From an uncultured Alphaproteobacteria bacterium (lineage in GTDB: Bacteria; Pseudomonadota; Alphaproteobacteria; Micavibrionales; Micavibrionaceae), in contig CAWDMZ010000002.1 of assembly GCA_963803555.1 (NCBI GenBank), forward strand, positions 283,052 to 347,051: 64,000 nucleotides of DNA. The letters run 5' to 3'. Shown in pieces: positions 7,138 through 51,365 of this stretch (positions are counted from its first letter, which is position 1; each line of letters starts with the position of its first letter). A program made the translations under genes and the position numbers. The notes beneath the pieces are model-generated. The model did no database searches. It was not told where the DNA came from and saw nothing but the letters and a program-made list of their open reading frames with translations.

Positions 7138-7140
7138 CAA

Positions 7141-7169: not shown

Positions 7170-7183
7170 TTCATTTATTTCTA

Positions 7184-7255: not shown

Positions 7256-7286
7256 CGATTATTTTATAATTATTTAAAAATATATA

Positions 7287-8072: not shown

Positions 8073-8101
8073 TCCTTATCTTTAATTTAAAATTAATTGA
8101 A

Positions 8102-8132
8102 ATCCTCACCATACCTATGGTGGGGATTTTTT
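8102..8132 (+). terminator. Rho-independent terminator after rplS
   Basis: Stem CCTCACCAT/ATGGTGGGG with loop ACCT, followed by TTTTTT. Confidence 0.65.
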
Positions 8133-8452
8133 AGTTTATTCAAGAAGTTTCCAATCATATCTAGGTTTAAAAATCTGGTCTTTGATCTTTTTTTGCCTCA
8201 TTATTAAAGAACTTTACAATTGCCCGAAGACTTGATAATCCCATCGATTAGACTATCAATGAAGCACTACTCCTTTTTTTTATAAAAAAAAGTTACTTCT
8301 ACCCGGAGGAGTTAAAATAAAAATTATTAAATCCAAATCCATCTGCCCTGTTGCAAAATCACTACCACATTTTTTAAAATTTTATGATATTTTAAGAGAA
8401 TTAACTAGGGTTTCATCTGATAGTTACATTGCAAATATGCCTATGTATTGCC

Positions 8453-33552: not shown

Positions 33553-33579
33553 TCAATCTCTTTTGAAAAGAAACACATA

Positions 33580-33620
33580 AAAAATCGGCTTAAGGAATAT
33601 CCTCAAGCCGATTTATTTTA
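33580..33620. terminator. Bidirectional terminator between convergent genes
   Basis: Stem ATCGGCTT/AAGCCGAT with an internal GGA/TCC extension, flanked by an A-run and a T-rich run. Confidence 0.7.
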
Positions 33621-33641
33621 ATCAATAGTGCGTTCAATCTC

Positions 33642-34823: not shown

Positions 34824-34957
34824 AGGATTTATAGTAATTAGATGAATTTTATTATTGACTGCTTATATATGAGCCTAAAAATAAACAATTTATATAAAAT
34901 AGCACTTTCCTAATTATTATTGAGGACAGAATTAGTAAAATAAAATTAATTTCTATT

Positions 34958-36364
34958 TTACAAGCCCGCTGCATTATACAAATTTGCTTTAGCAGTCAAT
35001 TCTTTAATTATTAAAGTATTTGCTTTGAGTTGAGAGTCTATGAGTTTTTGCTCCCTAGAATTGATAAGAAATAACGAACTCTCCCCTAAGAAAAACTTAC
35101 GCTCTTCTGCCTGCACCATTGTTTGATAATCTAGAACAATATCAACAATTAATTGGTTTTGCACGGCAAGGGAACTTATCTCTGCTTCTGTCGCTTCCAG
35201 TTTGTTTTTGATGGCGAGCGTAGTCGCTGTGCGTTCATATTCGGCGTCTTGCACTTTGATTTTAGCCAATTTTAAATCACCTCGCTCCTTGCGCAGAAAT
35301 AAGGGAAAACTTACGTCTAAAAATGCCTTGTAATTTGCCGTATTAAATGTGCTGAGCTGATCTCCGTCAGGAGTAAGAAAGTTGTACTGTAAATCAACTT
35401 TAGGCAATAACTTATTTTTCTTGAGGAAACGATCTACTTCAAGCCCATCTATTTTGGCATCAAGGCTATTGAGCTTAGGGTGATTGTTTAGTAGTACTGC
35501 GGTATCTGTAATACCCACTAGTAATAAGGATACATCTAAAACGGAAAGATCTGGTTTTTCTGGATTTATATTCTCCTGAATTTCTAAAGGAATCCCATCT
35601 AACCATAAAAAGTTGCTTACTGCAAGTCTCGCTTTTTGAGCTTTCAGAAGCGCTGCTTCCAGACCAAGTTTTCTGGTTTGAGCGGTGATACGTGCTTCTG
35701 TAATGTCAATGGCAGCTTTATCCCCTTCTTCTACACTGCGTCGCACAGCTTCTAATCGTGTTGATGCATTTTCTAAAAACGTCTCGTAGATGATCCTTTC
35801 GTTTTGAGCTTCCAGCCAGTCAAAATAGGCTAGACTTGCGTCATAAATTAAGTTGTTTACTAGCAAGTCCCTATCTGCTTTGGTCTGACGTTCAAAAAAT
35901 TTCGCTTTTTTGAGCGTTGCCATTCGCTCGTTAATCAATAATCCTTGAGCTAATGCAAATGAAACTCCTGCGCTATATAATCCGTCCTCAGGGACTGTGA
36001 GGCTAGGGTCTAAAAACTCCCCTGTGTTTTCTTCAAAATTACCTTTGAGTTCTATACCGTACCACGTAGGTATTTTAAAGGTAGTATTGAGCTGATCGTA
36101 ATATTCGGTTCCTTTAAACTTCTTTCGGTCGTAGTCTACCTCTACTTTTGGGTCAAAGCCACCACGGGCCTTGAGTAGATTTGCCTCCCCCGTACTCAAA
36201 ACGAGCTCTGCCTGTTTAATGAGCGGATGGTGCTGCTTAACGTACCCCAAATATTCTTCAAAAGAAAGAACAAAAGGGTCGGTCTCTAGATTGGTTTGAG
36301 CCAGTGACATTTTCGCGAAGGCGAACAAAAGCACCATACCTATATATACAGTCTTTAATTTCAT
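34958..36364 (-). CDS. TolC family outer-membrane efflux protein
   Basis: Signal peptide and two coiled-coil/barrel repeats typical of the OEP family. It overlaps the HlyD stop by 4 nt. Confidence 0.8.
   Translation of the reverse strand: MKLKTVYIGMVLLFAFAKMSLAQTNLETDPFVLSFEEYLGYVKQHHPLIKQAELVLSTGEANLLKARGGFDPKVEVDYDRKKFKGTEYYDQLNTTFKIPTWYGIELKGNFEENTGEFLDPSLTVPEDGLYSAGVSFALAQGLLINERMATLKKAKFFERQTKADRDLLVNNLIYDASLAYFDWLEAQNERIIYETFLENASTRLEAVRRSVEEGDKAAIDITEARITAQTRKLGLEAALLKAQKARLAVSNFLWLDGIPLEIQENINPEKPDLSVLDVSLLLVGITDTAVLLNNHPKLNSLDAKIDGLEVDRFLKKNKLLPKVDLQYNFLTPDGDQLSTFNTANYKAFLDVSFPLFLRKERGDLKLAKIKVQDAEYERTATTLAIKNKLEATEAEISSLAVQNQLIVDIVLDYQTMVQAEERKFFLGESSLFLINSREQKLIDSQLKANTLIIKELTAKANLYNAAGL
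36309..36325. repeat. TTTCGCGAAA-core palindromic element, 1-mismatch copy
   Basis: attttcgcgaaggcgaa inside the TolC signal peptide, read as FAFAKM. Confidence 0.55.
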
Positions 36365-37716
36365 TTCTTCTCTTTTAATGTCGTATCCGTACCGTTAGGT
36401 AAATAGTAATCAGGTGGGAAACCATTGAGTTTACGCCACAGTTCGTACCAGATTGGCACGTCTTTGAGCAAAGCGATCGTTTTAGCCCCAGAACCTACCC
36501 TTACATTCTTAGGCCAGTTCTCTGCATTGGGATCTGGTGCAATAAGCACCCTAAACTTTCCATTAGGACTAATAAAAGTTTCGACAGCAACCACTACTCC
36601 CGCATAGGTACCAAACGATGCGTCTGGCCAACCGCTAAAAACAATCGCAGGCCACCCGTCAAACCAGACCCGCACCGTTTCTCCCGTGTGTATGAGAGGT
36701 AAGTCTATAGGCTCTACAAAAGTCTCTACGGCAAGGTCATAGTCTGCTGGCATTATGCCCACAAGTTGCTCCCCTTCTTTAAAAGTCTCCCCTATACCAG
36801 ATTTAATTGCTTTATTTATAAATCCGTTTTGAGGGGCGAGCACAAATTGTAGCGTGCTTCTTATCTCATAATTAGTAGATGCGTTTTCTAATTTACTGAC
36901 TTGGGCCTCTGTGTCGTACTGATTAGATGATGCCGTAAATTTATCACTCTGCGACTTGCTTATTTTCTCTGCATACTCAGCATTGATGCGGGAAATTTCT
37001 AAAGATGCATTAAGTACCTCGTTCTGACTCCCGAGGTATTTATTTTCTTGGGAAATAAGTTTTGCCTCAGTTTCCTGTAATTTGAGTCTTTTATCTTCTA
37101 CATCTGCAGTACTTTTTAACCCTTCTGCTTGCAAGGTAGCGGTACGATCATACTGCTTCTGGGCGATATTTTTATTAGTACTCGCTGCAACGAGATCTAT
37201 ACTATCGCTCTGTACCTTGAATCTGGACTGTTTAAGTTTATTTTCTGCTTGTTGCAGTTTTAGGCCCCGCTCCCTTTCTAGCGCGCCTAGCTGATTTTCT
37301 AGTGCTTGTACTTTTGACTTATAAGATCCTACCGCATTACTCTTTGCGTCTCGTTGCTGGCGCGTGCGTTCGGCAAGGAGTGGATCTTGATATTCATTCT
37401 TTATTTCTGAAATCCGTAATATCGTATCTCCTTTTTTTACGTAATCCCCTTCTCTAACGTACCACTCCTCTACTCTTCCTGGTATTTGGGATTGTATGGT
37501 TTGCGGTCTTTGATCTGGAGTGAGGGTCGTTACATATCCATTACCAGTGACATTTTGGGTCCAAGGCAAGAAAAGAATGATCACTCCTATGAGCGCGAAT
37601 GCTAGAAGGAAACGGTTAAAATATTTGAAGTGACGGGTTTTGTGCGCTTTCGCGAAAGCGGAGTACCCATCTACATTCACCTTTTTATTAAGTTGATTAT
37701 GAGAAATATTAAGCAT
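36361..37716 (-). CDS. HlyD family secretion (membrane fusion) protein
   Basis: N-terminal TM, lipoyl-like GDTILRISE, a long coiled coil, and a beta-barrel domain. Confidence 0.8.
   Translation of the reverse strand: MLNISHNQLNKKVNVDGYSAFAKAHKTRHFKYFNRFLLAFALIGVIILFLPWTQNVTGNGYVTTLTPDQRPQTIQSQIPGRVEEWYVREGDYVKKGDTILRISEIKNEYQDPLLAERTRQQRDAKSNAVGSYKSKVQALENQLGALERERGLKLQQAENKLKQSRFKVQSDSIDLVAASTNKNIAQKQYDRTATLQAEGLKSTADVEDKRLKLQETEAKLISQENKYLGSQNEVLNASLEISRINAEYAEKISKSQSDKFTASSNQYDTEAQVSKLENASTNYEIRSTLQFVLAPQNGFINKAIKSGIGETFKEGEQLVGIMPADYDLAVETFVEPIDLPLIHTGETVRVWFDGWPAIVFSGWPDASFGTYAGVVVAVETFISPNGKFRVLIAPDPNAENWPKNVRVGSGAKTIALLKDVPIWYELWRKLNGFPPDYYLPNGTDTTLKEKK
37645..37660. repeat. TTTCGCGAAA-core palindromic element, perfect 16-mer
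   Basis: Inside the HlyD CDS, read as SAFAKAH. Confidence 0.85.
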
Positions 37717-37723
37717 CGCTTAG

Positions 37724-39382
37724 TTAATTTTTTGAGAGGATTAATCCGTTTTCTAATTGTATGTTACTCGTACATACGTTTCTCCAGTCCTTGTTGTTAC
37801 TAGATACTATAAGCGCCCACGGTCTATCTGGACTGGCCAAATATTCCATTATTTCCCGCGCCTCCTGAGCTTCAAAATGCTCTAACGCATCTTTGAGTAA
37901 GAGCACCTTAGGCTCGTGTACGATGGCTCTCGCTAAAAGAAGTCGCTTAGAAATAGTGTGTGGTATTTGCTGTCCTTCCGGAAATATCAATGTTTTAATA
38001 CCATTATTCTTCTTTCTCACAAATTTCTCCAAACCTACTATTTTGAGTACTTCATTTACACGGTCCATAGTAATATCTGAATTTCCAAAGGCAATGTTTT
38101 CAAGTATCGTCCCTTCAAAAGGAGTTTGCTCTGGAAGAACCTGTCCTATTTGAGAGCGGTAAGAATTAGGTCTCATCCCTATAAACGAAAAGTCATTTAT
38201 ATAAATAACCCCTGACGTAGGTTCTACTATTCCAGAAAGAAGCTTGAGAAGCGTGGTCTTACCAGAGCCTGAACGGCCTTCTATAAGAATACGGTCCTGC
38301 TTTTTAATAGAGAGTGATATTTCCTTTAGAACCGTCCCGCTATCCAGTGAATCGTACCCCACTTTTTCTAGTTGAATGGAGACTTCATCGTGATTCTCAA
38401 AAGGATCTATTCCTTCCTGTGGTTCCATTTTTTTATCTACTACTTGACCTATTTTTTCTAAGGAAGTCAGCACGTCATAAAAGCTCTCAAGGCCCGTGAT
38501 CAACTTTTCGACAGAACTAATTACAAGGAGTATAATAATTTCGGCAGCGACAAACTGACCTATATTCATTTGCTGGTTCAGCACGAGTAGTCCTCCTATA
38601 AGAAGGAGGCCTGCGGTAACAAGCACCTTAAAACCAATCATTTGTACAAGCTGTAATACCAAAACCTTGAAATGACTCTCACGAGCATCTAGATACTCCT
38701 CGGTAAGCTTATTATTGCGTTGCATCGCAAGAGATGTTCTTCCAGATAATTTAAAACTTACTAATGATCGCGCTATTTCCTGTAACCAGTGGGCCACACG
38801 GTATTTACTTTTAGACTCCTTAAGACTTGTTTCCAATCCTTTTCTTGCCGTAAACTTAAACACGAGATAGACCAAAATAACTAGTAAAAGACCATAAATA
38901 ATAAAAAATGGATGGTAAAAGGAAAGCAGGATCAAGCCAAACGTAATCTGTAAAATGGCTGCCGGAAAGTCTAACAATATTTTAGAAAGTCCTTTTTGAA
39001 CTGTGAGTGTGTCAAAAAATCTGTTTGCCAGTTCTGGCGGATAATAATTATCTAGCTCACTCATTTTGAGTTTGGGAAATCTATAGGCAAACTCAAATGA
39101 AGAGCGTGTAAAAATCTTCTGCTGGATGTTTTCTAGGATACGCACTTGCATAAGTTGTAAGATCCCTTGGAATGCGACCCCTAAGGTTACCAAGACTACG
39201 AGGACTATCCAAGAGGTAGATACCTGTGCCCCCTGTATTAAGTTTATAATAGCCTGGATTCCGAGTGGCAGCGTTAAGGCCACTATACCTGCAAAAATTG
39301 CATAAAAAAGGATTTGCTTGATGTCTCGCTTATCTAGCTCTAACATATTTACAAACCGTTGCCAAGGTGTCATTTCTTTCAT
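37724..39382 (-). CDS. ABC exporter (fused TMD-NBD, no peptidase domain) with an atypical NBD
   Basis: Six-TM exporter domain plus Walker A GRSGSGKTT. The signature, Walker B and H-loop positions look non-canonical (see findings). Confidence 0.8.
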   Translation of the reverse strand: MKEMTPWQRFVNMLELDKRDIKQILFYAIFAGIVALTLPLGIQAIINLIQGAQVSTSWIVLVVLVTLGVAFQGILQLMQVRILENIQQKIFTRSSFEFAYRFPKLKMSELDNYYPPELANRFFDTLTVQKGLSKILLDFPAAILQITFGLILLSFYHPFFIIYGLLLVILVYLVFKFTARKGLETSLKESKSKYRVAHWLQEIARSLVSFKLSGRTSLAMQRNNKLTEEYLDARESHFKVLVLQLVQMIGFKVLVTAGLLLIGGLLVLNQQMNIGQFVAAEIIILLVISSVEKLITGLESFYDVLTSLEKIGQVVDKKMEPQEGIDPFENHDEVSIQLEKVGYDSLDSGTVLKEISLSIKKQDRILIEGRSGSGKTTLLKLLSGIVEPTSGVIYINDFSFIGMRPNSYRSQIGQVLPEQTPFEGTILENIAFGNSDITMDRVNEVLKIVGLEKFVRKKNNGIKTLIFPEGQQIPHTISKRLLLARAIVHEPKVLLLKDALEHFEAQEAREIMEYLASPDRPWALIVSSNNKDWRNVCTSNIQLENGLILSKN

Positions 39383-39395
39383 TAAGTGAATTTTT

Positions 39396-39415
39396 AAAAT
39401 TTTCGCGAAAGCGAA
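39396..39415. repeat. TTTCGCGAAA-core palindromic element
   Basis: aaaattttcgcgaaagcgaa, in the 42-nt gap between the ABC start and the TetR stop. Confidence 0.75.
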
Positions 39416-39424
39416 AACCTATTG

Positions 39425-40093
39425 CTATTTAATCGCTCTAAAGACTAAATCACTATAAAATTTTACAATATTATTCTCGCCGTCTATCACGTTTGTGAGC
39501 GAGGGCAAGTGTTCTGAAAAGTATCGCTGGTGATGTGCTCCTTCTATAACCGTACTTATAAGCATATGAGGAAATTTATAGGAACTATTGATTTCTAAAA
39601 CAATATCACTTATTCTTTGAACGACCCTCTTATACGTCTTGTAATATCCCTTTGCGTTTTCCTTACCAATGTCTTTAGTATGGTAGGCTTTAGAAGATTC
39701 TGTGATGATGATTTTATGGAGAATAATCTCATTTACAAAAGACACCGTGCTGTCCTGAATCACATCTTCTGTAATAAGAAGCAGCGCAGCACGCAACCGC
39801 ACCATTGGGTCTGAGACATTAGTGGTGGCAAACACGAGCTTATATTCTATCCAGCTCCAGTACCAGCTTATTAAATAAACCAATAGGGCGTGCTTACTTT
39901 CAAAATATCGATATATAGAGCTCTCATTAGATCCTATGCGCTGGCCAAGCTTTTTAAAAGTAAAACTTTCAAAGCCCAGCTCATCTATCATTTCTATACT
40001 CGTACTAACTATATTACGCCCCAGATCTGTAGTCTCAGGATTTCGCGTATACAGAGCAGCGTCTATGGTTATATGAACTTGTAATTCTTCCAT
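39425..40093 (-). CDS. TetR family transcriptional regulator
   Basis: N-terminal HTH FTFKKLGQRIGSNESSIYRYFESKHALL. It heads the exporter operon. Confidence 0.8.
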   Translation of the reverse strand: MEELQVHITIDAALYTRNPETTDLGRNIVSTSIEMIDELGFESFTFKKLGQRIGSNESSIYRYFESKHALLVYLISWYWSWIEYKLVFATTNVSDPMVRLRAALLLITEDVIQDSTVSFVNEIILHKIIITESSKAYHTKDIGKENAKGYYKTYKRVVQRISDIVLEINSSYKFPHMLISTVIEGAHHQRYFSEHLPSLTNVIDGENNIVKFYSDLVFRAIK

Positions 40094-40200
40094 AGCTCAA
40101 AGATATGATAGCAATACTATTACAAAATTAAGTTTAACTATTTTTTATGAAAGTATCTCAGGATAAGTTTTGATATTTACTAAATCAAAACTGCAAGATT

Positions 40201-40518
40201 ATGATGACGCTCCAAATTGTATCGCACGATAAAGATCTCCTTAACACTATTGCAGATGATCTTCTTAAAGAAAAACTGATAGCTAATGCGTTTCTTACCG
40301 AAGAGGTAACTACAAAAACAATTGATAAGGATGATAAGGTGATTACCTCAACACAATATAGTCTTAAAGGAATATCTAAATCCCTTCTTTTTAATCGAAT
40401 CAACCAGAGATTAAGAGCGCAGTATGGCAAAGAGATGCCACTACTCTATTCGGAGCCTATCATAATGATCGATCCAGAACAAACCGAGGAAATCTTATCC
40501 AATGTAATCTCTATTTAA
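40201..40518 (+). CDS. Hypothetical protein, weakly CutA1-like
   Basis: 105 aa. The patterns IADDLLKEKLIANA...K...PLLYSEPI run parallel to CutA (LAEKLAACA...P), but the similarity is weak. Confidence 0.3.
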   Translation: MMTLQIVSHDKDLLNTIADDLLKEKLIANAFLTEEVTTKTIDKDDKVITSTQYSLKGISKSLLFNRINQRLRAQYGKEMPLLYSEPIIMIDPEQTEEILSNVISI

Positions 40519-40538
40519 CACTACAAATGGCCGCGACG

Positions 40539-40791
40539 TTTTATAAAATGCTCGGTAGTTCATTAAGATAGATCTCTAATGATGAAGCCTTAAATTTTGA
40601 ATAAATGATTTTAGAGGCCAAAAGACAACTTCTCTACTCAGATAAAAATACCGAAGAAGTTGCTTAGGAAATTGGCTTTACAAATTCCGCGCACTTCTCA
40701 AAATTCTTTAAACGACACACAACCCTACCTCCTGCCTCCTGCCTCCTGCCTCCTGCCTCCGTCCTTTAAGAAAACAATAAGTACTTTTTAA
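40539..40791 (+). pseudogene. Remnant of an AraC-family regulator (C-terminal HTH only) with three in-frame stops and a frameshifting microsatellite
   Basis: One frame reads FYKMLGSSLR*ISNDEALNFE*MILEAKRQLLYSDKNTEEVA*EIGFTNSAHFSKFFKRHTTLPP... This matches the AraC second HTH (EAK.LL....I.EIA.E.GF...S.FS..FKK..G..P..FRK). No N-terminal domain lies upstream. Confidence 0.6.
40728..40762. repeat. Heptanucleotide microsatellite CCTCCTG x4 plus degenerate CCTCCGT
   Basis: Read directly: cctcctg cctcctg cctcctg cctcctg cctccgt. Confidence 0.9.
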
Positions 40792-40918
40792 AGTCCATCC
40801 ATTTGATTTTTATTTATAAATACACTGTTGTCATAAGGCGAAGCGGTTGTAATACGTTCTTTAAGGACCACTTACCATTGAATAAGAATGACTATCTTAG
40901 AAACAAAATGGTAGCATA

Positions 40919-41803
40919 ATGAAAAAGCTCAGAAAAGAAGAAGTTAAGCAAGAAGTATTTGATCTGTATGACGATTATGCACACGATAAAATGCCCAGAA
41001 GGGAATTTATTGAAAAGCTATCTCTATATGCCATAGGTGGGATCACCGTCGCTTCCCTTATGAGCTTTTTGATGCCAGATTACGAGTCTACAAGAATCGT
41101 TGACACTCAGGAACCGAAGCTCCTCTCAGAGTACATCACCTATGAGTCCCCAGAGGGTGGTGGGACTATTAAAGGACTTTTATCAAAACCTAAAAGTCAC
41201 GACGGTAGAATGGGTGGGATTGTGGTGGTACACGAAAATAGAGGCCTGAATCCTTATATAGAAGATACTGCTAGACTTGCTGCGCTAGAAGGATTTATCA
41301 CCCTCGCCCCAGACGCACTTACTCCTTTAGGTGGATACCCAGGTAATGACGATGATGGCCGCACTATGCAAAAGGAGCGGGACAGGGATGAAATGCTGGA
41401 AGACTTTATAGCAGCCTATAGGTACCTTTTAAATCATCCAGATTGTAATGGAAAAATAGGGGTTGTAGGTTTTTGCTTTGGCGGATGGGTTTCTAATATG
41501 ATGGCAGTAAAACTTCCCAACTTAGCAGCAGCTGTACCATTTTATGGTAGCCAACCTAAAGATAATATAGAAGCTATAAACGCACCGCTTATGTTGCAAT
41601 TTGCAGGACTAGATAAGAGGGTAAATTCTGGATGGCCAGATTATGAGCAAGCTCTTAAGGAAAACAATAAAACCTATGAAGCATTTATATATCCAGAGGT
41701 AAATCACGGCTTCCACAATACCTCAACACCACGATATGACCAGCCCGCAGCAACACTTGCTTGGGAAAGAACTATCTCTTTTTTCAAAGAGCATTTGAGT
41801 TAG
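40919..41803 (+). CDS. Dienelactone hydrolase family protein
   Basis: VVVHENRGLNPYIEDTARLAALEGFITLAPD, nucleophile elbow GVVGFCFGG, and C-terminal HGF. An N-terminal PRREFIEK Tat-like segment is followed by a hydrophobic helix. Confidence 0.8.
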   Translation: MKKLRKEEVKQEVFDLYDDYAHDKMPRREFIEKLSLYAIGGITVASLMSFLMPDYESTRIVDTQEPKLLSEYITYESPEGGGTIKGLLSKPKSHDGRMGGIVVVHENRGLNPYIEDTARLAALEGFITLAPDALTPLGGYPGNDDDGRTMQKERDRDEMLEDFIAAYRYLLNHPDCNGKIGVVGFCFGGWVSNMMAVKLPNLAAAVPFYGSQPKDNIEAINAPLMLQFAGLDKRVNSGWPDYEQALKENNKTYEAFIYPEVNHGFHNTSTPRYDQPAATLAWERTISFFKEHLS

Positions 41804-41864
41804 TGGTATCTCAATGTATTTGCCTCAAAATGATAGTATCTTTAAAAAACGCTCGCTTTTATCT

Positions 41865-42722
41865 ATGAATGAAATATCCGCAAAAAACACTCAAGTCTTT
41901 ACAGAGCTTTCAGAACAGGAGCTCATCACATTGCGTGAAGCTAAAAAAAATCTTACAGAAGTTCCATTTGCAATGAAAGCGCTCAATGCGTTGGGAACTC
42001 CTATAGATAAGGGAATAGCCTTGGTGCCTGAAAAATATCAAAGTAAGATTACCGAAACCGTGAAGAAAGCGCTTGAGATAAGTGTGAAGGCTAACCTTAA
42101 AACGTTCAAGGACCGTAAAAGTAATATCAAAGCTTCTAATGGTATGTACAAAGTGGTAACCACAGGAACAGGATTTGTGGGTGGATTTTTTGGATTGGCT
42201 GGTTTCACAGCAGATATCCTCTTAAGTACCAAATTTTTAATGCGTTCTATTATGGACATTGCTCGTAGTCAGGGCGAGGATATTACAGATCCAGAAGTGC
42301 AGCTGCAATGTTTACAGGTCTTTGCTTTAGGCGGAGGTTCTCCAGATGATGACGCGCTAGATAGTAGTTATTATGGTATTCGGATCGCTCTTGACCAGGC
42401 CCTTTCTCAAATAGCCTCTAGTGTGGCAAAACAAGGAGCCAAAAAATTTTTGCAGGCCATTGCGGCAAATGCTCCAGGAGCAGCGGGAGGTTTTCTCAGT
42501 AAAATTATCTCGAGATATAGTGTTCAAGTATTAGACAAGTTTGCCGCTCAGGCTATTCCAATCGTGGGAGCCGCGACAGGCGCTGGTCTCAATCTGGTTT
42601 TTCTAACACACTTTCAAAAAGTTGCTACTGCTCATTTTACCATCAAGAGGTTAGAAAGACAGTACGGTAAAGAGGTCATAATGGAAATGTATCACACTAT
42701 TGATGTCCCATCAACAGAGTAA
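41865..42722 (+). CDS. EcsC family protein
   Basis: The pattern ALNALGTPIDKGIALVPEKYQSKITETVKKALE plus a Gly/Ala-rich hydrophobic core resembles EcsC (recalled from memory). ATG at 41865 is preferred. Confidence 0.5.
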   Translation: MNEISAKNTQVFTELSEQELITLREAKKNLTEVPFAMKALNALGTPIDKGIALVPEKYQSKITETVKKALEISVKANLKTFKDRKSNIKASNGMYKVVTTGTGFVGGFFGLAGFTADILLSTKFLMRSIMDIARSQGEDITDPEVQLQCLQVFALGGGSPDDDALDSSYYGIRIALDQALSQIASSVAKQGAKKFLQAIAANAPGAAGGFLSKIISRYSVQVLDKFAAQAIPIVGAATGAGLNLVFLTHFQKVATAHFTIKRLERQYGKEVIMEMYHTIDVPSTE

Positions 42723-42864
42723 TCGCCCAGTTCTTTACAAACCATTAATTAAGTAGATAACAACAAAAGATCGCTGCAGAACCAGTTCTTAGGAGTAGTA
42801 AGCCCTATAAAGTTTCTGTTTACTGTTGAATCAATTCTCTATGCGATTGAGATGTAGGTTTTAA

Positions 42865-42881
42865 GCTTGCGCGAAAGCGAA
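42865..42881. repeat. TTTCGCGAAA-core palindromic element, degenerate copy
   Basis: gcttgcgcgaaagcgaa, intergenic, 34 nt beyond the response-regulator stop. Confidence 0.5.
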
Positions 42882-42914
42882 CTGAAATATGCCGCGGGAC
42901 ATCTTTCTTCTATC

Positions 42915-43640
42915 CTATAAAATTAATTCCTTAATCCTATCTGCATAACTCCTGCTTACTTTAAGTTTTTCATTATTCTTGAGTATTAAAATATAGCTTT
43001 TTCCATACCGGGCAACTTCTTTTACAGCAGGGAGACTTACGATCGTACTGCGGTGAATACGCATAAACTGCTTAGGATTGAGTTTTTCCTCGAGTGATGA
43101 GATCCCTCTATTACTGAGGTATGCCTCTTTATCATCATAAATTTTAGAATAATCACCATACGCCTCAACATAGAAAATATCTTGAGTGGCTAGGGTGACA
43201 TATTTTGAGCCCTTCTCTGCAATAATCCGATCTGGGAAATCGGCTTTTTTCATAATGTGTTGATCTGCAAGTGGGGCAATCTGTCGTGGGGCATTATCCT
43301 TTATTTTCGAAATGGCTTTATCAAAACGATCGCGTGTATATGGTTTTAAGAGATAGTCTACCGCGTGCACTTCAAATGCCTTCAGCGCATATTTATCGTA
43401 AGCGGTACTAAAAATAATAGTAGGTAATTCTTCCAGATGTTCTAATACATCAAAACCCGTGAGTCCGGGCATCTGGATATCCATAAATACCAGATCTGGT
43501 TTAAACTCATTGATGATCTTAATGGCATCTACACCATTGTTTGCCTCACCTACGAGAATAAGATCCTTATAATTCTCTAGGTATTCTTTGATAAGCAGTC
43601 TTCCCGACTTCTCATCATCTACAATTACCACCTTCTTCAT
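42915..43640 (-). CDS. LytTR/AlgR family response regulator
   Basis: Receiver domain (DLVFMDIQMPGLTG) plus a C-terminal LytTR DNA-binding domain (FMRIHRSTIVSL). Confidence 0.9.
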   Translation of the reverse strand: MKKVVIVDDEKSGRLLIKEYLENYKDLILVGEANNGVDAIKIINEFKPDLVFMDIQMPGLTGFDVLEHLEELPTIIFSTAYDKYALKAFEVHAVDYLLKPYTRDRFDKAISKIKDNAPRQIAPLADQHIMKKADFPDRIIAEKGSKYVTLATQDIFYVEAYGDYSKIYDDKEAYLSNRGISSLEEKLNPKQFMRIHRSTIVSLPAVKEVARYGKSYILILKNNEKLKVSRSYADRIKELIL

Positions 43641-44692
43641 AACTCGAACTGTACTTTGAGTCCGCTAGGAAAGTTGTCTGATACCTTGAGAGAAGATTGA
43701 TACATTTTTTGCAAGCGTTTTTGTGTATTGCTTAATCCTACACCAAGATTGAAGATAGCTTCCTTATCGGCTACTCCTACTCCAGTATCGTTAATTTCGA
43801 AGATAAGTTTGTTATGCTCTTCGGTAATGATGATATCAATTTTTCCACCTTTTACTAAAGGTGAAATCCCATGTTTAATCGAGTTTTCTACCAGTGGCTG
43901 CAGGATCATAGGAGGAATTTCTCGCGAAAGCAACCTACTGGCCACCTGCATATTAATTTCCAACCGATCCTCAAACCGCTTCTGCTCAAGTTTAAGATAC
44001 TTATTTACAAATTCCAGCTCTTCTTCTAATGTTACAAGATCCTCCCTACTTGCTTTTAGTTGGTATCTAAAAAGATCTGAGAGCTCTGCAATCATCTCCC
44101 GTGTTTCTTCCATTTCCTTTGGAACGCTTGCATTAATGGTATTAAAAACATTGTATAAAAAATGCGGATTGAGCTGTGCTTTAATAGCACTCAACTCGCT
44201 TTTGAGCGCTGTATTCTTAAGCTCAATCTCGTATTGCAACTTGCGCTGATTGATGACATAGTGCTCATACGCGTGTATGAGCGCAAACTGTATCAAATAG
44301 ATAAGCGTGGGGATATAGATATCCCATACTTGAAAGGCTCCGCTCAAGTGGCCTAACGCTAGCAAATCACTAATTAAGTAATACACACGCCACGAAAAAA
44401 GCACAAACAAAGGAAGACCAATGATATGAAGTGCTAGTCGCTTTCCTAAAGACCACTGACTAAAAATCCGAAATATAAAAACCCAGATAATCCCAGTTCC
44501 AACAAGCATAATCCCATATTGCAGACCTGAATCATCAAACCAATTAGATGGAGTAAAGAGAACATCTTCCTCTCTCGTAAAACCTAAACGATTTATATAG
44601 AGGGTGATATGATAAATAAGGGACAGTATTAGGTATGTACCCAACAAAGCCCCTAATTCATACATCTTAATTCCGAAAATCTCTTTTTTCAT
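43637..44692 (-). CDS. LytS/YehU-type sensor histidine kinase (His_kinase + HATPase_c)
   Basis: Four or five TM helices, the H-box LNPHFLYNVFNTI, and N/G boxes (LVENSIKHG, DTGVG). It overlaps the RR start by 4 nt. Confidence 0.85.
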   Translation of the reverse strand: MKKEIFGIKMYELGALLGTYLILSLIYHITLYINRLGFTREEDVLFTPSNWFDDSGLQYGIMLVGTGIIWVFIFRIFSQWSLGKRLALHIIGLPLFVLFSWRVYYLISDLLALGHLSGAFQVWDIYIPTLIYLIQFALIHAYEHYVINQRKLQYEIELKNTALKSELSAIKAQLNPHFLYNVFNTINASVPKEMEETREMIAELSDLFRYQLKASREDLVTLEEELEFVNKYLKLEQKRFEDRLEINMQVASRLLSREIPPMILQPLVENSIKHGISPLVKGGKIDIIITEEHNKLIFEINDTGVGVADKEAIFNLGVGLSNTQKRLQKMYQSSLKVSDNFPSGLKVQFEL

Positions 44693-45382
44693 TTAGTTGT
44701 TCTTTTCAAAGACATACCAGATTTCTTTATTTTGAGGATTATAGCTCAATTTAATGATTCCTAAATTAGTGTAAATAAGGTATTTTCCTTCCATTTTTAA
44801 AGATTTACCATATTGCCAAGCTTCTGCTTTGCCATCTCTATAGTAGAAAACAACGTCATTATTGAACTCGATACTGGTGTCATATCCAGTTTTATTGTCA
44901 TAGTCAAAGAAGCGTGTTTGAGTCATCACAAGTCCATTACTCGTTCCTTTCCAAGCTCCAGAAGTCTTTCCTTTTTTAGAAGTTACATAGTCTTCATCTT
45001 TATTTGAGCGAATGGAATTTTGACCTTTTTTAAAACGTCCAAAATCATACGGATTACTACCATCATATTCATAGTCAGATTCCTCCATCACTAGTGTTCC
45101 ACTTGACAGTTCATAAGTGTCAGGCTCATCACTCCAAGCGGTAAATACCCAGAGTGTTATAGGTTCTGTTATTGTATATTCTTTTAATTCTTCAAGTTGA
45201 CTGGGCGATAGTACCGCATTTCCACTGGCATCCTCGGCTACAAATCCTGTTCCCGGTGGATAGCTTATTTCCTGATGGTTGTCAAGTTTAATTTTTAGAT
45301 AAGTGTGCTTTTCTGTGGTTTCGGCTGTTACGATCGTAATAGTACACAGAAGGCTTATCAAAAGTGAAATTATCGTTTTCAT
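44693..45382 (-). CDS. Secreted hypothetical protein, first gene of the LytTR two-component operon
   Basis: Signal peptide (TIVTAETTE). Its stop abuts the kinase start. I recognise no motif. Confidence 0.5.
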   Translation of the reverse strand: MKTIISLLISLLCTITIVTAETTEKHTYLKIKLDNHQEISYPPGTGFVAEDASGNAVLSPSQLEELKEYTITEPITLWVFTAWSDEPDTYELSSGTLVMEESDYEYDGSNPYDFGRFKKGQNSIRSNKDEDYVTSKKGKTSGAWKGTSNGLVMTQTRFFDYDNKTGYDTSIEFNNDVVFYYRDGKAEAWQYGKSLKMEGKYLIYTNLGIIKLSYNPQNKEIWYVFEKNN

Positions 45383-45568
45383 AGTTCATACGTTTTTAGT
45401 TCAGTTTAAAAGTACAGGCATTATACTAGTAAATCTAGATCCTTTCGACGAAGCGCCCTATGCGTCGTCCAGTTGCCATAAGCCCGCCCGTCGAGGTATA
45501 AGACCACTGGTCGGTTTGATCTTAAGTTATAGAAGATCTCTGTAGAGTTTTGCTTTAAATAATGGACT

Positions 45569-47960
45569 ATGAAATCTACCTATAAGCTTATCACAATTTT
45601 TATTCTTTTTTCCGCTTTCGCGAAAGCGCAAACACTTAAAGGCACCGTTCTAGATCAGAGCAAGGCGCCATTACCATTTGTAAACGTCATCTTGAATACT
45701 CCAAAAGGGGACCTTGTAAAAGCGACCACCACAAATGAAAAAGGAGCTTTTACAATCACAGAAATCAAGAATGGAACTTTCAATTTAAAAATCTCCTACG
45801 TGGGTTTTGAAACTGAAACACGAGAAATAATCATCGATAAAAGTCTTACAATTCAACCCGCTATCGTTCTCAAGCTGGCTACAGAATCTCTGGACGCCGT
45901 GACCATCGTTGCCGAAAAACCTATGATACAAGTAGAACCGGATAAAACTATTTTTAACGTGGCTGGTACCGTGAGCAGTGCAGGGCTTAATGGCTTAGAA
46001 TTATTACGTAAAGCTCCAGGTGTGCGCTTAGATAACAATAACAGTGTCATTGTTGAAGGTAAAACGGGCGTTCTTATTTATATAGATGGAAGACAGAGTT
46101 TTTTACAAGGAGATGATCTTACCGCATTTTTACAGTCCTTGCAAGCAGATACGATTGAGAGTATTGAAATTATCACACAACCCTCTTCTAAATACGATGC
46201 GGCGGGAAATGCAGGGATTATCAATATTAAACTTAAAAGAGAAAAAGGACTCGGAACTCGAGGTAGCGTATCTAGTACAGTAACCGTAGGTAATTTTGCT
46301 CGAACCAATAACGCTATCAATCTCACTAGCCGACTCAAAAATTGGAATATCTACGGCACTTATTCTAATTATCTAGGCCGCTCTACGGGATTTCTAGATC
46401 TCTACAGAATACAAGGAGATAAGATTTTTGATGCTCAAAACGATGCTGAGTACGATGGTTTTTCTAATAACTTTAGAACAGGTACAGATTACTACCTTTC
46501 TAAAAAAAGTACCCTAGGCGCGGTTGTTACCCTCAACCTCAACGATTCAGAATCGCGATCAACTAATAGAACATCCATCATCGACAGACAGACCAGCACG
46601 ATTGATAGTATCCTCCGTGCGCCCAATAGATCTAATACACATACCGTAAACTTCAATACAAATATAAATTACCGCTACCAAGACACCATTGGCACAAGTC
46701 TAAGTGCAGATCTGGATTATGGCCGTTACACTAGAGATCGCTTTAATAATCAGCCTAACTTGTATGTATCTCCAGAAGGCGAAATACTCAACGCAATCAT
46801 CACCTATCAAGAAACACCGATACTCATTGACATCTTTGCAACCAAAATAGATTATGAGCAAAAACTAGGTAAAGGAACTTTGGAAACAGGAGCTAAAGTA
46901 TCTCAAGTAATCACCGACAATAGCTTTAATTTTTTCGATGTTATAAATGATGTAAATCTGCTCAATACAAACCGCAGCAATCAATTTGAGTACCATGAGA
47001 ATATTTATGCGGGGTATCTTAAGTACCATACGAGTTTTGGTAAGTGGAAAATTCAAGGTGGATTCCGTGTAGAAAGTACCGATTCACAGGGCGATCTTAC
47101 CGCTACAGAAGAGGGTGAAAATGAGTCTGTAAGTCGTCTGTACACAAATCTATTTCCCTCCGCTGGGGTTGACATATCAGGCTGATCAAAAAAACTCACT
47201 CGCGCTTTCGTATAGCAGACGCATCCAGCGACCTAGTTATCAAGACCTCAACCCTTTCGAATATCAGCTTGATGAGTTGAGTTTCAGTAGAGGCAATCCG
47301 TTTTTACAACCTCAGTATACAGACAATTTTAAAATCTCTCATACCTATAAATACACCCTCACATCCAGTTTAAGTTACTCTTACGTTTCAGACTTTTTTG
47401 CGCGAGTTACGGAGGCTGTTGGTGAAAATAGAAATTTTTTAAGTACCCGTAATGTGGCAGATCAAGAAGTGTTTAATATGAGCATTTCATATCCCTTCAA
47501 GGTAAACGACTGGTGGCGTGCATATGCAAATATGTATGGATCCTTAACAACCTATATTGCTACAGATCCAGCATTTATATCCACCGCACAAGAGACCTTT
47601 GGCTTTTATGCTCAGAACACGTTTAGCCTACCTAAAAATTTTAAAGTGGAAATAAGCGGGTGGTACAGCAGCCCCTCCATTTGGGGTGGAACATATCAAA
47701 CCGAGAGCCTAGGCTCTCTGAACCTCGCCGTTCAAAAAACGTGGAAAAATTGGACGGGGAAAGTGACACTCAACGATGCATTGTATACTATTCCTTGGCG
47801 TGGTACAACTCAGTTTGGAGATCTATTTATAGACGGTCGAGGTGGAGGCGATAGTCGCAATATCAATTTTTACGTACAATACACCTTTGGAAATAAAGAA
47901 GTAAAAGATGCTGCCAAACGTAATGGAAGTCTTGAAGATGAAAAAGGGCGAATTGATTAA
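45569..47960 (+). pseudogene. TonB-dependent-receptor-like outer-membrane barrel (CarboxypepD_reg + plug + barrel) broken by an extra G in a G4 run
   Basis: ORF 45569-47185 ends ...LFPSAGVDISG*. ORF 47169-47960 begins (L)TYQADQKNSLALSYSRRIQRPSYQDLNPFEY. Deleting one G of GGGG (47165-47168) gives a continuous LFPSAGLTYQADQKNS. Confidence 0.75.
45613..45628. repeat. TTTCGCGAAA-core palindromic element, perfect 16-mer
   Basis: Inside the receptor signal peptide, read as SAFAKAQ (an AxA cleavage region). Confidence 0.85.
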
Positions 47961-47973
47961 AAAAAGAACTTTT

Positions 47974-47991
47974 ACGCTTTCGCGAAAATGC
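47974..47991. repeat. TTTCGCGAAA-core palindromic element
   Basis: acgctttcgcgaaaatgc, 14 nt after the stop at 47960. The 20-mer tacgctttcgcgaaaatgct is identical to the copy at 52838-52857. Confidence 0.75.
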
Positions 47992-48087
47992 TACTTAGAT
48001 TTTGGCAAAAGCGTAAAATATAAGCCTCTTACATACTGCTTGTTAACCTTTTATAAAAAATTCTCACTAAAGGTAAAACAAACTATT

Positions 48088-49548
48088 ATGAGCACACCTA
48101 TAAACTACCGTGTAAAAGAGTTTCTACCTTCTAAGCACGCATTTAAATTTAAAAACAGTTTTAAATTTTCTAACCTCGTTCCAGATCTTGGTATCAACTT
48201 AGATAGTAAAGTAGGCGATAGCGCCTACGGTCTGTGTGGCGGAATTGTACATTGCGCCCACGAGTTGTTCTTACATAAAGAACCTATCCCCAATATAACG
48301 AATGAGCCAGGACTTTCAGATCCTATTTATTATTACATCACAGAAGGACTTCTTGATACCTTTGGCACTAGGCTGAGTAATATGCGCAAGATGATAGACT
48401 ATCACGGGATGAAGGATGGAAAAGAACGTCTGCCAAAAATAAGCTTGGTACAACTAGCCTTCTTAAAGCTTATGATTAAACAAAATAGACTTGCCCAGAT
48501 GATGATTGTTTATCACACCCAAGGAGAAGACAAAGTGTGGAACAATCATCAAGTACTCGCCTACGGCATTGAAGAAAAAGACGAAAAAGGGAAGATTTAC
48601 ATTTATGATCCAAATGTGATTGATGCATCCCTTATTGATAAAGAATTTATTAGCTATGAGATAAAAGACAAGAAAGTTCTAATGGAACAACCTACAAGAT
48701 TAAAAATGAAAAATATTACAGATGATACGGTACACGGCTTTTTCTTAGTTAACCCACCACTACGCGACCCACACCAGAGTATCGCTTACCTAGCATCTTT
48801 GGGGGCCTTTGAAATGATACGCCGCATGCGCACAGAGTTACGTAAAGGAATTCTAGAAATCACAAGAGCGCTTAAGAAGTACTTTAAAATGGCGGATGAA
48901 AAAATCATTGAACTTCTCATCAGAATGCGTTACAAAGTTCAGGACATCGCAGTTATAATGCGCAAATATTATGGTATGGCACCATCAGCTTTTTTTAAAG
49001 CGATGCGCGATGCTCAGGCTAAAATAGAAGACATTGTCAATGCAATACGTCGTGTATACAAAACGGCGATGACTACAGTCTATCAATGGCTTAAGTCTGC
49101 ACGGATAAAAATAGATCAAATCGCTCAAATGTTGAGAACTGCTTACTCTCAAACGGTACAACAAATGGTCAATTTCCTAAAACGAATGAGAATTACAATG
49201 TTAGAGATCGCTGAAATCTTAAGAGAGACTTTTAGAATTACAAAATGGCGCGAATTAGGTGGGATTCTTAAAAATGCTAAATATGCAATCGCAGAAATTG
49301 CAAAATATATGCGTAGCATCGCAAAGGTGGGTGCTGGTTACTTTGCTAAATGGTTACGTAATGCCTTTCGATATTCGGCAAAAACGATTACCCGATTATT
49401 AAATTCAATTTATAGGTCTTCACTAAAAGATATTGTAGAAATACTATATAGCTGGGTAAAATTTGGTGTAACAACTGTGATAAACGCCGTTAAAAGCGAA
49501 TTAGGCATTGGTAAAGTTAAAGTAATGCGTATCATTGCTGGTATTTAA
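48088..49548 (+). CDS. Orphan protein: N-terminal papain-like (Cys-His-Asp) domain plus eight basic 29-30-aa helical repeats
   Basis: ATG at 48088 (MSTPINY) is preferred, because the track's upstream 60 codons cover the intergenic palindromic element. Candidate triad: C in YGLCGGIVHCA (48235), H in NHQVLAYG (48547), D in IYIYDPN (48607). The repeats occupy 48808-49545. Confidence 0.6.
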   Translation: MSTPINYRVKEFLPSKHAFKFKNSFKFSNLVPDLGINLDSKVGDSAYGLCGGIVHCAHELFLHKEPIPNITNEPGLSDPIYYYITEGLLDTFGTRLSNMRKMIDYHGMKDGKERLPKISLVQLAFLKLMIKQNRLAQMMIVYHTQGEDKVWNNHQVLAYGIEEKDEKGKIYIYDPNVIDASLIDKEFISYEIKDKKVLMEQPTRLKMKNITDDTVHGFFLVNPPLRDPHQSIAYLASLGAFEMIRRMRTELRKGILEITRALKKYFKMADEKIIELLIRMRYKVQDIAVIMRKYYGMAPSAFFKAMRDAQAKIEDIVNAIRRVYKTAMTTVYQWLKSARIKIDQIAQMLRTAYSQTVQQMVNFLKRMRITMLEIAEILRETFRITKWRELGGILKNAKYAIAEIAKYMRSIAKVGAGYFAKWLRNAFRYSAKTITRLLNSIYRSSLKDIVEILYSWVKFGVTTVINAVKSELGIGKVKVMRIIAGI

Positions 49549-49573
49549 GTATCGAACCTCGTAATTTACAGTA

Positions 49574-49604
49574 AAATAGCCGTCCAAAAGATGGCTATTT
49601 TTAG
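49574..49604. terminator. Bidirectional terminator between convergent genes
   Basis: Stem AAATAGCCGTC/GATGGCTATTT with loop CAAAA, followed by a T-run. Confidence 0.7.
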
Positions 49605-49609: not shown

Positions 49610-51365
49610 CTAATAATTTGTAAACCTAGGTTCAAACCACAAAAAGCCCATTGCCAAAACGAAAGCGATCAAAAACCAAACTCGTGGTATTGGTATATTG
49701 ACGCCCTGATTACTAAATGTTTGGGCCCTGTCTCTGTTAAAATATTCCTCATTGGCTAACTGCTTTTCGTACGTACTTTTGGCTTTAAAAACAGCGCTAT
49801 CAGTAACAAAAAAAGAATAGTTATGCAATGAGTCCTGTTTTACCGATAGGGTATTCCACCCTTTTTCTTTAGGGTACACTGTAACTTCCCAAAGGTCATC
49901 TTGATGCAGATCATTTTTTATAGCGATGCGGATACTGTCGTTTAAATAAACATCAGGGGTTGGAATTTGAGTTTGAAAAATGATCGTAAATGGCTCATCC
50001 ACACGGGAGCGTTGCTGCGGTTCTTCCCAATCTACGAGTTGCTCGTCCCTTTTTGCAATCCCACTCAAAATTTCAGACCATATTGATTTGTAGAGTTGGT
50101 CCTGACCATCAAGCAACCATTGGTAGGTATTTTGAAAAAGAGCCGTTGCAATTTTACCATTATTTCTGATTGTTGCGGCGGCAAGAACATCATCATTTGT
50201 GGTTACTAATGGAACCAAAAGCGCATCTTCCTGGAAACGATAATCAAAGGTAGTGACCACCGCACGGGGCCAATTCACTAAAGAAATAGCATTATTATTT
50301 CTTGTAAACTCAAAATATGATTGCTTTCGCGAAAGCGTAAAAAATCCTCCGTCGGGCTGTATAAATACACCTAATCCTTGTTGCTCTACGCTCGATAGTA
50401 AAGCTGATCTAGACGTGCCTGTGAGACTGGAAAAAGAAGGAGTGTCTAAAATGACGATATCAAAAATCATCTAGATTCTGCTCTGTAAAGCCATAAATCG
50501 CACCTTGCGATCGATTAAAATTTTCAAACTTGTAGGTGTTGCTAGTTATTTGAGAACGCACTAAAACTTCAAAACCTTGCGCTGCTAGAAAGTTCTTAAG
50601 ATACTTGGTCTCAAAGGTTGGGAAATTATTTACGATCAATACACTTATGGGTTGCTTCTTTGAAACCTTTATAGGAATAGGATCGGCAGTGAGGATCCTA
50701 TCAAGAGTATCTGTAGTCACTAAGGTGTAGATAAAATTCCCAACAACATTTACCTCAGTTTTTAAGCTGGATACATGCTCTCCTTTAGCATCCATAATTA
50801 GTGAATCTCTCTTATTTCCGCCTGCGTCTTCCAGAAAAATCTTCGTCCCAACTTTTGCTTTTTTATAGAGACTTTTAACGATAAGAGAGTCGCCAGTGTT
50901 AAGGTTCTTTTCATACTGTAGCTTCACTATTCCTGATGGTAGCTGCGATGGGAGATACACTGTTTTCACTTCTTGAAACTGCCAGAGATCATAAGGCTCA
51001 ACACCATTCCCTAAAATGGTCAGTTCATTTATAGAATCTAAAACTGGTTGCAAATAGTGATTATGAACGTAAGGTATTTCCTTTAGATTCCTAGAGCGCT
51101 CTCTCAAACTATCCAGTTGTTCAGAATTATAATCTGATGTGATCAACACGCCTTTTCTACTCTTTATTTCTCCCTGTTGCGCCGGTCGCAGCACCATCAT
51201 CGCTAGTGTAAACACGGCAATAGCTGCAACTATTGATTTAAAAATGAACCGCTTCCAACCGCTCTGAGTGTACTCTTTCCATAAAAAAATGAGCCAAACA
51301 ACCACCGCTACCGTAGCAACGAGTGCGAGCCATTCACTATGTATGAAAGTCATATTATCGCTCAC
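49610..51365 (-). pseudogene. Membrane protein, last gene of the MoxR cluster, split by an extra T in a T5 run (coding strand)
   Basis: ORF 50460-51365 ends ...FTEQNLDDF*. ORF 49610-50470 starts MIFDIVILDTPSF. Removing one base of the A5 run at 50462-50466 gives a continuous QNLDDFDIVILDTPSF, about 586 aa, with TM helices at both ends. Confidence 0.65.
50322..50339. repeat. TTTCGCGAAA-core palindromic element (14-nt perfect palindrome)
   Basis: tgctttcgcgaaagcgta inside a CDS, read as TLSRKQ. Confidence 0.8.

Follow-up and report, generated by a model that had tools for sequence, protein, structure and literature searches.

What kind of enzyme is encoded at positions 48088–49548 of a 64,000-nucleotide (nt) stretch of DNA from an uncultured alphaproteobacterium of the Micavibrionaceae (GenBank assembly GCA_963803555.1, contig CAWDMZ010000002.1; the whole stretch is hereafter the window), and what does the long run of helical repeats that makes up its C-terminal half do for it? 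A first-pass annotation made from the sequence alone described the product as an orphan protein, in which a papain-like Cys-His-Asp domain is joined to eight basic helical repeats. We find that the gene joins a predicted papain-type cysteine hydrolase domain, so far unannotated, to a highly basic array by which the enzyme is probably directed to a target, and that the word orphan does not hold for either module, as both the N-terminal domain and the repeat occur in sizeable families.

The coding sequence runs on the forward strand from the ATG at 48088 to the TAA at 49546–49548 and specifies 486 amino acids (aa). An upstream in-frame ATG at 47908 is an unlikely start, since it overlaps the preceding gene and a palindrome, the extension is not signal-like, and every homologue begins at the equivalent methionine with an MS(T/N/S) start. 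No hydrophobic stretch resembling a signal is present at the N-terminus (MSTPINYRVKEF...), in agreement with the earlier statement that the protein lacks a signal peptide. Relative to an orthologue of 82% identity, dN/dS is approximately 0.06–0.09, with dS saturated, and purifying selection covers the N-terminal domain and the array alike; an identical protein is found on an independent public contig (P0001). These two observations, together with confident folding, argue against a spurious open reading frame (ORF), and the gene is real, conserved and constrained. Its GC content of 0.373 lies near that of the neighboring genes (0.40 ± 0.02), and recent horizontal transfer, as judged by composition, was rejected.

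The N-terminal domain (residues 1–230, 48088–48777, net charge +1) carries the candidate catalytic residues in a fixed order. The candidate nucleophile Cys50 (48235–48237) lies in a YGLCGG motif and opens a helix spanning residues 50–62, the candidate general base His154 (48547–48549) lies in an NHQVLAYG motif and opens a strand spanning residues 154–164, and the candidate third member of the triad, Asp174 (48607–48609), belongs to an Asp174-Pro175-Asn176 sequence (YDPN, 48607–48615) just past the strand formed by residues 167–173. Upstream of these, Asn23 (48154–48156), in an F-x-F-x-N-x-F motif, is a candidate for the oxyanion hole. Cys50 and His154 are invariant in alignments of 12, 64 and 89 sequences; in the largest of these, where mean column identity is 14%, Asn23, Gly51 and Gly52 are invariant as well, and Gln155, Asp174, Pro175 and Asn176 are at least 90% conserved. 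Conservation of the Cys, His and Asp in homologues was one of the checks that the first-pass annotation had set for its papain- or C39-like assignment, and at the level of sequence and prediction the assignment is supported.

An AlphaFold model of the domain alone (pLDDT 90.9, pTM 0.89) shows a helical lobe (residues 79–131) and a six-stranded sheet between the candidate Cys and Asp/Asn sites. Because Cys50 sits at the start of a helix, His154 at the start of a downstream strand, and Asp174 and Asn176 just past the next strand, the predicted topology is that of the papain fold, and the candidate Cys-His-Asp set appears to lie where this fold places its triad. When the model was compared with the Protein Data Bank (PDB) using Foldseek, approximately 30 of the top 50 matches were papain-fold enzymes, including IdeS, the staphopains, cathepsin B and the amidase domains of glutathionylspermidine and trypanothione synthetases; the C-terminal domain of a Bacteroides type VI secretion system (T6SS) effector was also among the top matches (probability 0.94). 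Single-sequence and profile searches of PDB sequences with the N-terminal domain found no relative. At a permissive threshold, the Pfam families Peptidase_C39_2 and BtrH_N, both of which we take to be members of the papain clan, each match 11 of the 89 relatives, with best E-values of 6e-6 and 4e-4, respectively; one of these matches, in P0213, scores 20.4, below the gathering cut-off of 24, and the window protein itself does not reach the gathering score of either family. On the combined weight of the alignments, the model and these weak profile matches, we take the N-terminal domain to be a new papain-fold enzyme family that is probably a distant relative of C39.

The C-terminal half begins after a short linker and cap helix (residues 231–238, SIAYLASL, 48778–48801; cap helix at 232–237) that is conserved only in array-bearing proteins. 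The array itself (residues 239–486, 48802–49545) is a predicted alpha-solenoid of eight hairpins of 29–30 residues, which start at residues 239, 268, 297, 326, 355, 385, 414 and 444 (48802, 48889, 48976, 49063, 49150, 49240, 49327 and 49417), and it is closed by a terminal half unit of 14 residues from residue 473 (49504–49545). The eight repeats previously placed at 48808–49545 are therefore correct, give or take the cap helix, with the half unit as an addition. When residues 231–486 are compared with themselves by BLOSUM, similarity is highest at a shift of 29 residues (z = 6.5), and a further maximum at 15 (z = 4.8) corresponds to half a hairpin. AlphaFold predicts 18 helices, or nine hairpins, in the array region, with pLDDT above 90 over residues 230–400 of the full model, and each unit consists of helix A (~10 aa), a turn, helix B (10–12 aa) and a second turn. 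Mean identity between units is 17%, with hydrophobic residues recurring at unit positions 9, 10, 17, 20, 24 and 28, basic ones at 11, 14 and 25, and an acidic one at 19. Lys and Arg, which are about equally abundant, make up 19% of the array, giving a net charge of about +30 and a pI of 10.4. In a comparison of five orthologues, evolution is somewhat faster in the array than in the catalytic domain (mean conservation 0.69 vs 0.76). Conservation by unit position is fairly uniform within this small set (0.45–0.95) and peaks at the core hydrophobic positions 9, 10, 20 and 24, with no clear specificity columns.

The earlier suspicion that this repeat lies outside the known classes is supported by the family searches. 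No repeat family in Pfam or NCBIfam matches the array, or the arrays of relatives with 40 units, and the TPR, HEAT, Sel1, ANK and mTERF profiles all stay below threshold, both in the window protein and in relatives whose arrays run to as many as 40 units; a single mTERF match (P0014, E = 0.004) comes without a significant stretch. PUF, PPR and TALE arrays have units of 33–36 residues and are recognized by profile, whereas here the period is 29–30 and no profile matches. Array-bearing proteins do draw summed weak matches to small helical domains (UBA, RepB_primase_C and Integrase_Zn). Most of what a PDB profile search of the array returned was designed helical-repeat or coiled proteins; Foldseek with the full model gave generic solenoids for the most part, and designed helical repeat proteins match the array best both in structure and by sequence profile. 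A homologue search with the array alignment recovered the known clade only, where the word index was probably saturated by low-complexity candidates, and in the literature nothing usable was found on a 29-residue repeat or on the BtaeB effector.

Each module also occurs in many other proteins. A profile search spanning 1.84 billion cluster representatives (50% identity clusters) found 2,613 relatives of the N-terminal domain at E ≤ 1e-3 and 1,507 at E ≤ 1e-10, and among the 150 matches listed nearly all align to residues ~10–230. With one genome taken per species, 278 of 185,579 species representatives carry a relative, in phyla that include Chloroflexota, Actinomycetota, Planctomycetota, Cyanobacteria, Acidobacteriota, Bacillota, Bacteroidota and Pseudomonadota; an archaeal relative ends a 981-aa protein encoded on a Haloferax larsenii megaplasmid (L099, 3766–6711). 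The domain stands alone in 138 of 231 family members, whereas 73 have an N-terminal extension and 20 a C-terminal one (16 at the C-terminus only, 4 at both ends). A signal-peptide-like N-terminus is present in approximately 20% of the family by a crude hydrophobicity test, and some members have lipoboxes. The fused modules are mostly carbohydrate- or surface-binding: TTR-52 or CarboxypepD_reg-like sandwiches, B_lectin, Tectonin, DUF346, LysM, Fascin/DUF7910, beta/gamma-crystallin and pentapeptide repeats. Because the extensions are mostly of this kind, the N-terminal domain would by this logic be the enzymatic half of proteins that combine a binder with an enzyme. The members for which we encountered an annotation, from RefSeq PGAP and other sources, are all named ‘hypothetical protein’. 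Two large proteins, P0068 and P0055, have the papain-fold domain at the C-terminus, as in the Haloferax protein; in this group, a 1,030-aa protein contains repeated modules weakly resembling an H-type lectin, and a 1,328-aa protein has N-terminal hydrophobic stretches that look transmembrane-like by eye.

No neighboring gene is conserved across 84 family loci that we clustered by neighborhood, and the long-contig contexts of four family members are mutually unrelated. Viruses contribute little to the family, with no match in phage GenBank, nothing significant in a BFVD structure search and relatives on no more than 4 of 2.9 million viral contigs. Few proteins combine both modules, the full architecture occurring in about 10 clusters among 5.8 billion proteins and in one of the 185,579 species representatives, a Nonlabens metagenome-assembled genome (34% identity), and a metagenome scan returned only the orthologue contig that was already known.

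The repeat likewise proves to be a broader family and a portable C-terminal module, as judged by profile comparison. The profile search matched residues ~255–481 to C-terminal arrays of proteins of 900–2,400 aa, and a profile built solely from six arrays of the clade scores the arrays of these otherwise unrelated proteins at 126–298 bits, vs at most 2 bits for shuffled sequences. The unit consensus in the large proteins is AAALLKGAGYAATDIAGALKSVY followed by ~6 variable residues. Arrays as long as 40 units are found on exported giants with lipase or Ig domains, and array carriers include exported multidomain proteins with Lipase_3, Big_6, PKD, Calx-beta or DUF11 domains, some with signal peptides or lipoboxes; the array was always C-terminal among the sequences that we inspected. 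Outside the close relatives of the window protein, array charge is neutral or acidic (net −11 to +6). A strongly basic array (+26 to +40) is found only in these close relatives, among which the basic charge is kept, and in P0014 (+30), a signal-peptide protein with the same architecture. P0013, P0014 and P0200 combine the N-terminal domain and the array with signal peptides. All of the array proteins that we encountered in RefSeq and GenBank are also ‘hypothetical’.

Several of the array carriers have features of their own. Giants of 1,400–2,400 aa without a signal peptide (L101, 3278–7861, on a Hymenobacter tibetensis plasmid; L103, 2437–6777, Herpetosiphon Haur_5003; P0016; P0017), all named ‘hypothetical’, have a similar N-terminal opening, compared over ~50 residues, and the same repeat array at the end. 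The Hymenobacter giant carries a Pro/Gly-rich MPYG-repeat spacer, and its gene lies next to those for a GH108 lysozyme-family protein and a DUF4231 protein. Three Deinococcus plasmids encode array-only or array-dominated proteins (L102, 6672–8813; L104, 4852–6735; L105, 5953–6720), among them a lipoprotein with ~17 units and a 255-aa protein that is the array alone. Two of these proteins have Cys-rich ends (CGIFGC and LCFFFC), and on two of the plasmids the array gene adjoins integrase or transposase genes.

We tentatively favor a reading in which the protein is a package of a papain-fold thiol hydrolase and a non-catalytic docking solenoid, with a polyanionic ligand of the envelope type. Specifically, residues 1–230 would form the catalytic domain, with Cys50 as the nucleophile at the N-terminus of a helix, His154 as the base on the adjacent sheet, Asp174 (or Asn176) orienting His154, and Asn23 possibly contributing to the oxyanion hole; the reaction expected of such a domain would be cleavage, or transfer, at a peptide or amide bond. 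Residues 239–486 would form a rigid alpha-solenoid of 8.5 short hairpins, free of catalytic features, that docks the enzyme onto its substrate. A docking role, which the first-pass annotation had also raised when it spoke of a targeting array, is suggested because the array fills the slot held by lectins or other binding modules in relatives and because other exported enzymes carry it as a portable module at the C-terminus. Since the array is polycationic throughout the close-relative clade, its ligand there is most likely a polyanionic surface or polymer, and since relatives point outside the cell, we would prefer a cell-envelope component (lipopolysaccharide, phospholipid, acidic polysaccharide or cell wall) over a specific nucleic-acid sequence. 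A protein of this kind might act antagonistically, as a toxin or lysin does.

Several observations weigh against this proposal. In the absence of a signal peptide, an envelope or extracellular target would need a separate release route, which is the main weakness of the envelope guess, and the approximately 80% of the family that lack a signal peptide by the crude test fit a cytoplasmic role equally well. At the 84 family loci and in the flanks of homologues, no partner for immunity, secretion or lysis is conserved, and a net charge of +30 is equally expected of a nucleic-acid binder. On the enzymatic side, none of the Foldseek matches of the N-terminal domain in the PDB is individually significant (best E = 0.03), and Pfam and NCBIfam return nothing for the window protein even at E ≤ 10. 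The gene also lacks the usual marks of a polymorphic-toxin, T6SS or contact-dependent effector: the catalytic domain starts at residue 1, leaving no N-terminal trafficking domain, and no adjacent immunity-like partner gene is present. Apart from the 4 viral contigs, the occurrence in phage genomes or in a prophage context that would be expected of a phage endolysin was not seen either.

The alternative that survives best would keep the protein inside the cell, as an intracellular protease or amidase whose solenoid is a protein-protein scaffold of the TPR or HEAT type, and would make it a housekeeping or regulatory accessory enzyme with no antagonistic function. Alpha-solenoids most often bind proteins, and an enzyme of this type would fit the missing signal peptide, which is the rule in the family, the purifying selection on both modules, the GC content near that of the neighbors and the position beside a Bat/MoxR-type cluster, which is kept in the 82% orthologue. 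We nevertheless consider it unlikely, as the very patchy spread of the full architecture and the different context of every homologue are hard to square with such a role, the lectin, LysM and lipoprotein fusions of relatives point out of the cytoplasm, and so extreme a positive charge is unusual for a protein-binding scaffold.

Much the same array could instead be a nucleic-acid-binding, possibly sequence-reading solenoid that recruits or activates the protease on intracellular DNA or RNA, for example in defense or regulation, as the first-pass annotation had proposed in likening the repeats to modular nucleic-acid readers. The charge of +30, the pI of 10.4, the near parity of Arg and Lys, and the retention of basic charge in the clade are what such a binder would show, and a protein without a signal peptide would meet its ligand in the cytoplasm; but the same repeat occurs, with neutral or acidic charge, in exported proteins, lipoproteins and Ig-domain proteins. 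The units resemble helix-turn-helix (HTH) hairpins and draw weak matches to Integrase_Zn, RepB_primase_C, Sul7s and IS66 TnpA, although these are summed low scores without a significant individual stretch. Eight repeats recall PUF, and since PPR and PUF units are degenerate too, the low identity between units is compatible with this idea; the conservation, however, is highest at the core positions, and among the five orthologues no set of surface ‘specificity’ positions, of the kind that modular reading would call for, stands out. PADLOC defense models gave no match for the window protein, P0010, P0016 or P0055, so that the suggestion of a defense-type protease finds no support there, and no link to nucleic-acid-related neighbors was seen. 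Taking both sides together, we judge this explanation quite improbable.

The chemistry of the N-terminal domain could also differ from hydrolysis, with the array still serving to bind. Clan CA papain-fold enzymes include transferases and deamidases, and BtrH_N, an acyltransferase N-terminal domain, matches the relatives as often as Peptidase_C39_2 does, so that an acyl- or aminoacyl-transferase or a deamidase of the BtrH or transglutaminase type would use the same Cys-His-Asp chemistry. The best structural neighbors are peptidases and amidases, though, and no acyl carrier protein or biosynthetic-cluster neighbors occur in the contexts examined; sequence data cannot separate these chemistries, and we give this version only a slim chance. 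The most speculative idea, that the hairpin repeat of the clade is a new class of polycationic solenoid that reads a linear polyanion (DNA, RNA or other) unit by unit and thereby positions or switches on an intracellular C39-like protease, would amount to a new ligand-guided protease assembled from two previously undescribed domain families, but is the least likely of the explanations considered and very improbable.

In its genomic setting the gene behaves as an accessory element made up of one gene, no mobility genes being visible, and the contexts of homologues, which vary, agree with the earlier description of a monocistronic gene in an accessory-like position. In the contig of the 82% orthologue (L001), the gene is bordered upstream by a TrkA_C gene and downstream by the same Bat-type gene as in the window, where the TrkA_C orthologue is found 14.5 kb further upstream (32779–33552). 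The extra window segment of ~14.5 kb (33553–48030) is missing from L001 at that spot, and homology to the orthologue locus picks up ~60 bp upstream of the ATG. It contains a GH5 (cellulase-family) gene, an OEP, HlyD and ABC exporter with a TetR regulator, a dienelactone hydrolase, an EcsC protein, a LytTR/His_kinase two-component pair, a split outer-membrane barrel gene and a 229-aa ORF without a Pfam match; no integrase or transposase was seen in it. All other full-length homologues have unrelated flanks. A functional link to the nearby exporter was rejected, as the segment that carries it is missing at the orthologue locus, and export by the type IX secretion system was rejected for lack of a signal peptide. 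On the opposite strand of L001, 2–10 kb upstream of the orthologue (1–8186), lie three very large genes (829 aa, 1,211 aa, and more than 915 aa with an AHH nuclease toxin domain) that form a polymorphic-toxin-like locus, which is missing from the window at the corresponding position.

The palindrome and terminator that the first-pass annotation saw at the flanks are both present, but the palindrome is not specific to this gene. An inverted repeat at 47970–48018, with 20-nt arms that are 90% complementary, lies between the upstream porin-like gene and the ORF and is one copy of the palindrome GCTTTCGCGAAAGC, which is dispersed throughout the genome; a related palindrome also lies upstream of the 82% orthologue. 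Downstream, a terminator-like hairpin (49573–49601; 12-bp stem, 5-nt loop and T-run) precedes a convergent gene. The palindrome has 14 sites with at most 2 mismatches in the window, vs ~0.2 expected, and a 15-mer version has 31 matches counting both strands, vs 1.8 expected; examples are at 1955, 15080/15109, 27826, 37646, 39399, 42865, 45614, 47976, 50323, 52841, 54247 and 61901, and further sites occur in L001 and L094. Copies are placed just past stop codons and also within ORFs, where they are able to encode AFAKA, as in the signal peptide (FSAFAKAQ) of an outer-membrane barrel gene. Candidate roles for the motif are those of a terminator, a REP-like element or a site for a regulator.

Two single-base homopolymer indels, at ~47166–47169 and ~50462–50466, flank the gene. 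At the first, a G4 run splits an OMP_b-brl_3 receptor into two ORFs (45569–47185 and 47169–47960); at the second, a T5 run splits the downstream gene (49610–50470 and 50460–51365), which is a single ORF in the 82% relative, with T4 at that site. Both indels may be sequencing errors rather than gene decay, and this includes the one in the upstream gene that had been called a decayed receptor.

For the window gene itself the pay-off of this analysis is modest, and it has no bearing on a long-standing question. Its wider value lies in two domain families that current annotation resources do not recognize, a papain-fold family and a 29-residue hairpin repeat; defining both would provide names and testable hypotheses for thousands of proteins. 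Judging by the fusion of the N-terminal domain to lectins, LysM and crystallin modules, the family may consist of targeted hydrolases, for which fungal chimerolectin toxins or cell-wall hydrolases offer a comparison. Should the array turn out to bind in a programmable or polymer-specific manner, it could supply protein engineering with a new scaffold, a prospect raised by its structural resemblance, which is closest to designed helical repeat proteins.

Among known systems, the nearest profile families are Peptidase_C39_2 (PF13529) and BtrH_N (PF14399) of the Pfam clan Peptidase_CA, which have the same order of Cys, His and Asp, a Cys in a small-residue motif at the start of a helix, and the ‘H-x-V-L’ and ‘D-P’ motifs in common with the N-terminal domain. 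The new family differs in having its own invariant F-x-F-x-N-x-F and YGLCGG motifs, in lacking a Gln just upstream of the Cys, and in being fused to lectin-type partners; it is neither attached to an ABC exporter nor placed in a biosynthetic cluster. The top structural neighbors, IdeS (C66), the staphopains (C47) and cathepsin B (C1), share with the model a two-lobed architecture in which the Cys helix is followed by an antiparallel sheet with the His and Asp. The likeness is a distant one (Foldseek E ≥ 0.03, TM-scores of ~0.25–0.35, no detectable sequence similarity), and the helical insert at residues 79–131 is specific to the N-terminal domain family. The array, for its part, is a predicted alpha-solenoid of stacked two-helix hairpins like PUF, PPR, TALE, mTERF, TPR, HEAT/PBS-HEAT and designed repeats, with a period similar to the ~30 residues of mTERF, but differs from these known helical repeats in that its 29–30-residue units reach no family threshold, its relatives are exported and it has no visible specificity columns.

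The closest parallels to the whole protein combine a papain-fold enzyme with a binding module. MOA, the agglutinin of Marasmius oreades, is a chimerolectin in which a lectin is joined to an unusual papain-like cysteine protease (PMC4764322, PMC8244254). The window protein would likewise have a binding module fused to a papain-like enzyme, and relatives of its N-terminal domain are fused to true lectins. This is an analogy only, as MOA is not among the structural matches, the domain order differs and a helical array stands in place of the lectin. MOA, like the window protein, is not known to have a signal peptide. Cell-wall hydrolases of the CHAP or NlpC/P60 type (autolysins and endolysins) also place a tandem-repeat binding domain after a papain-fold catalytic domain; CHAP-type amidase domains are among the structural matches of the model, some relatives carry LysM and the Hymenobacter array giant adjoins a GH108 lysozyme gene. 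The window protein differs from them in that it has no CHAP or NlpC/P60 profile match and no phage or lysis-cassette context, and its repeat is helical, unlike choline-binding, SH3b, LysM or SLH modules. Measured against all of these systems, the protein falls outside C39_2 and BtrH_N, the known helical repeats, polymorphic-toxin and T6SS effectors, defense systems and phage lysins; it belongs to no curated family, and what it resembles is the known class of proteins in which a binding module is coupled to a papain-fold enzyme.

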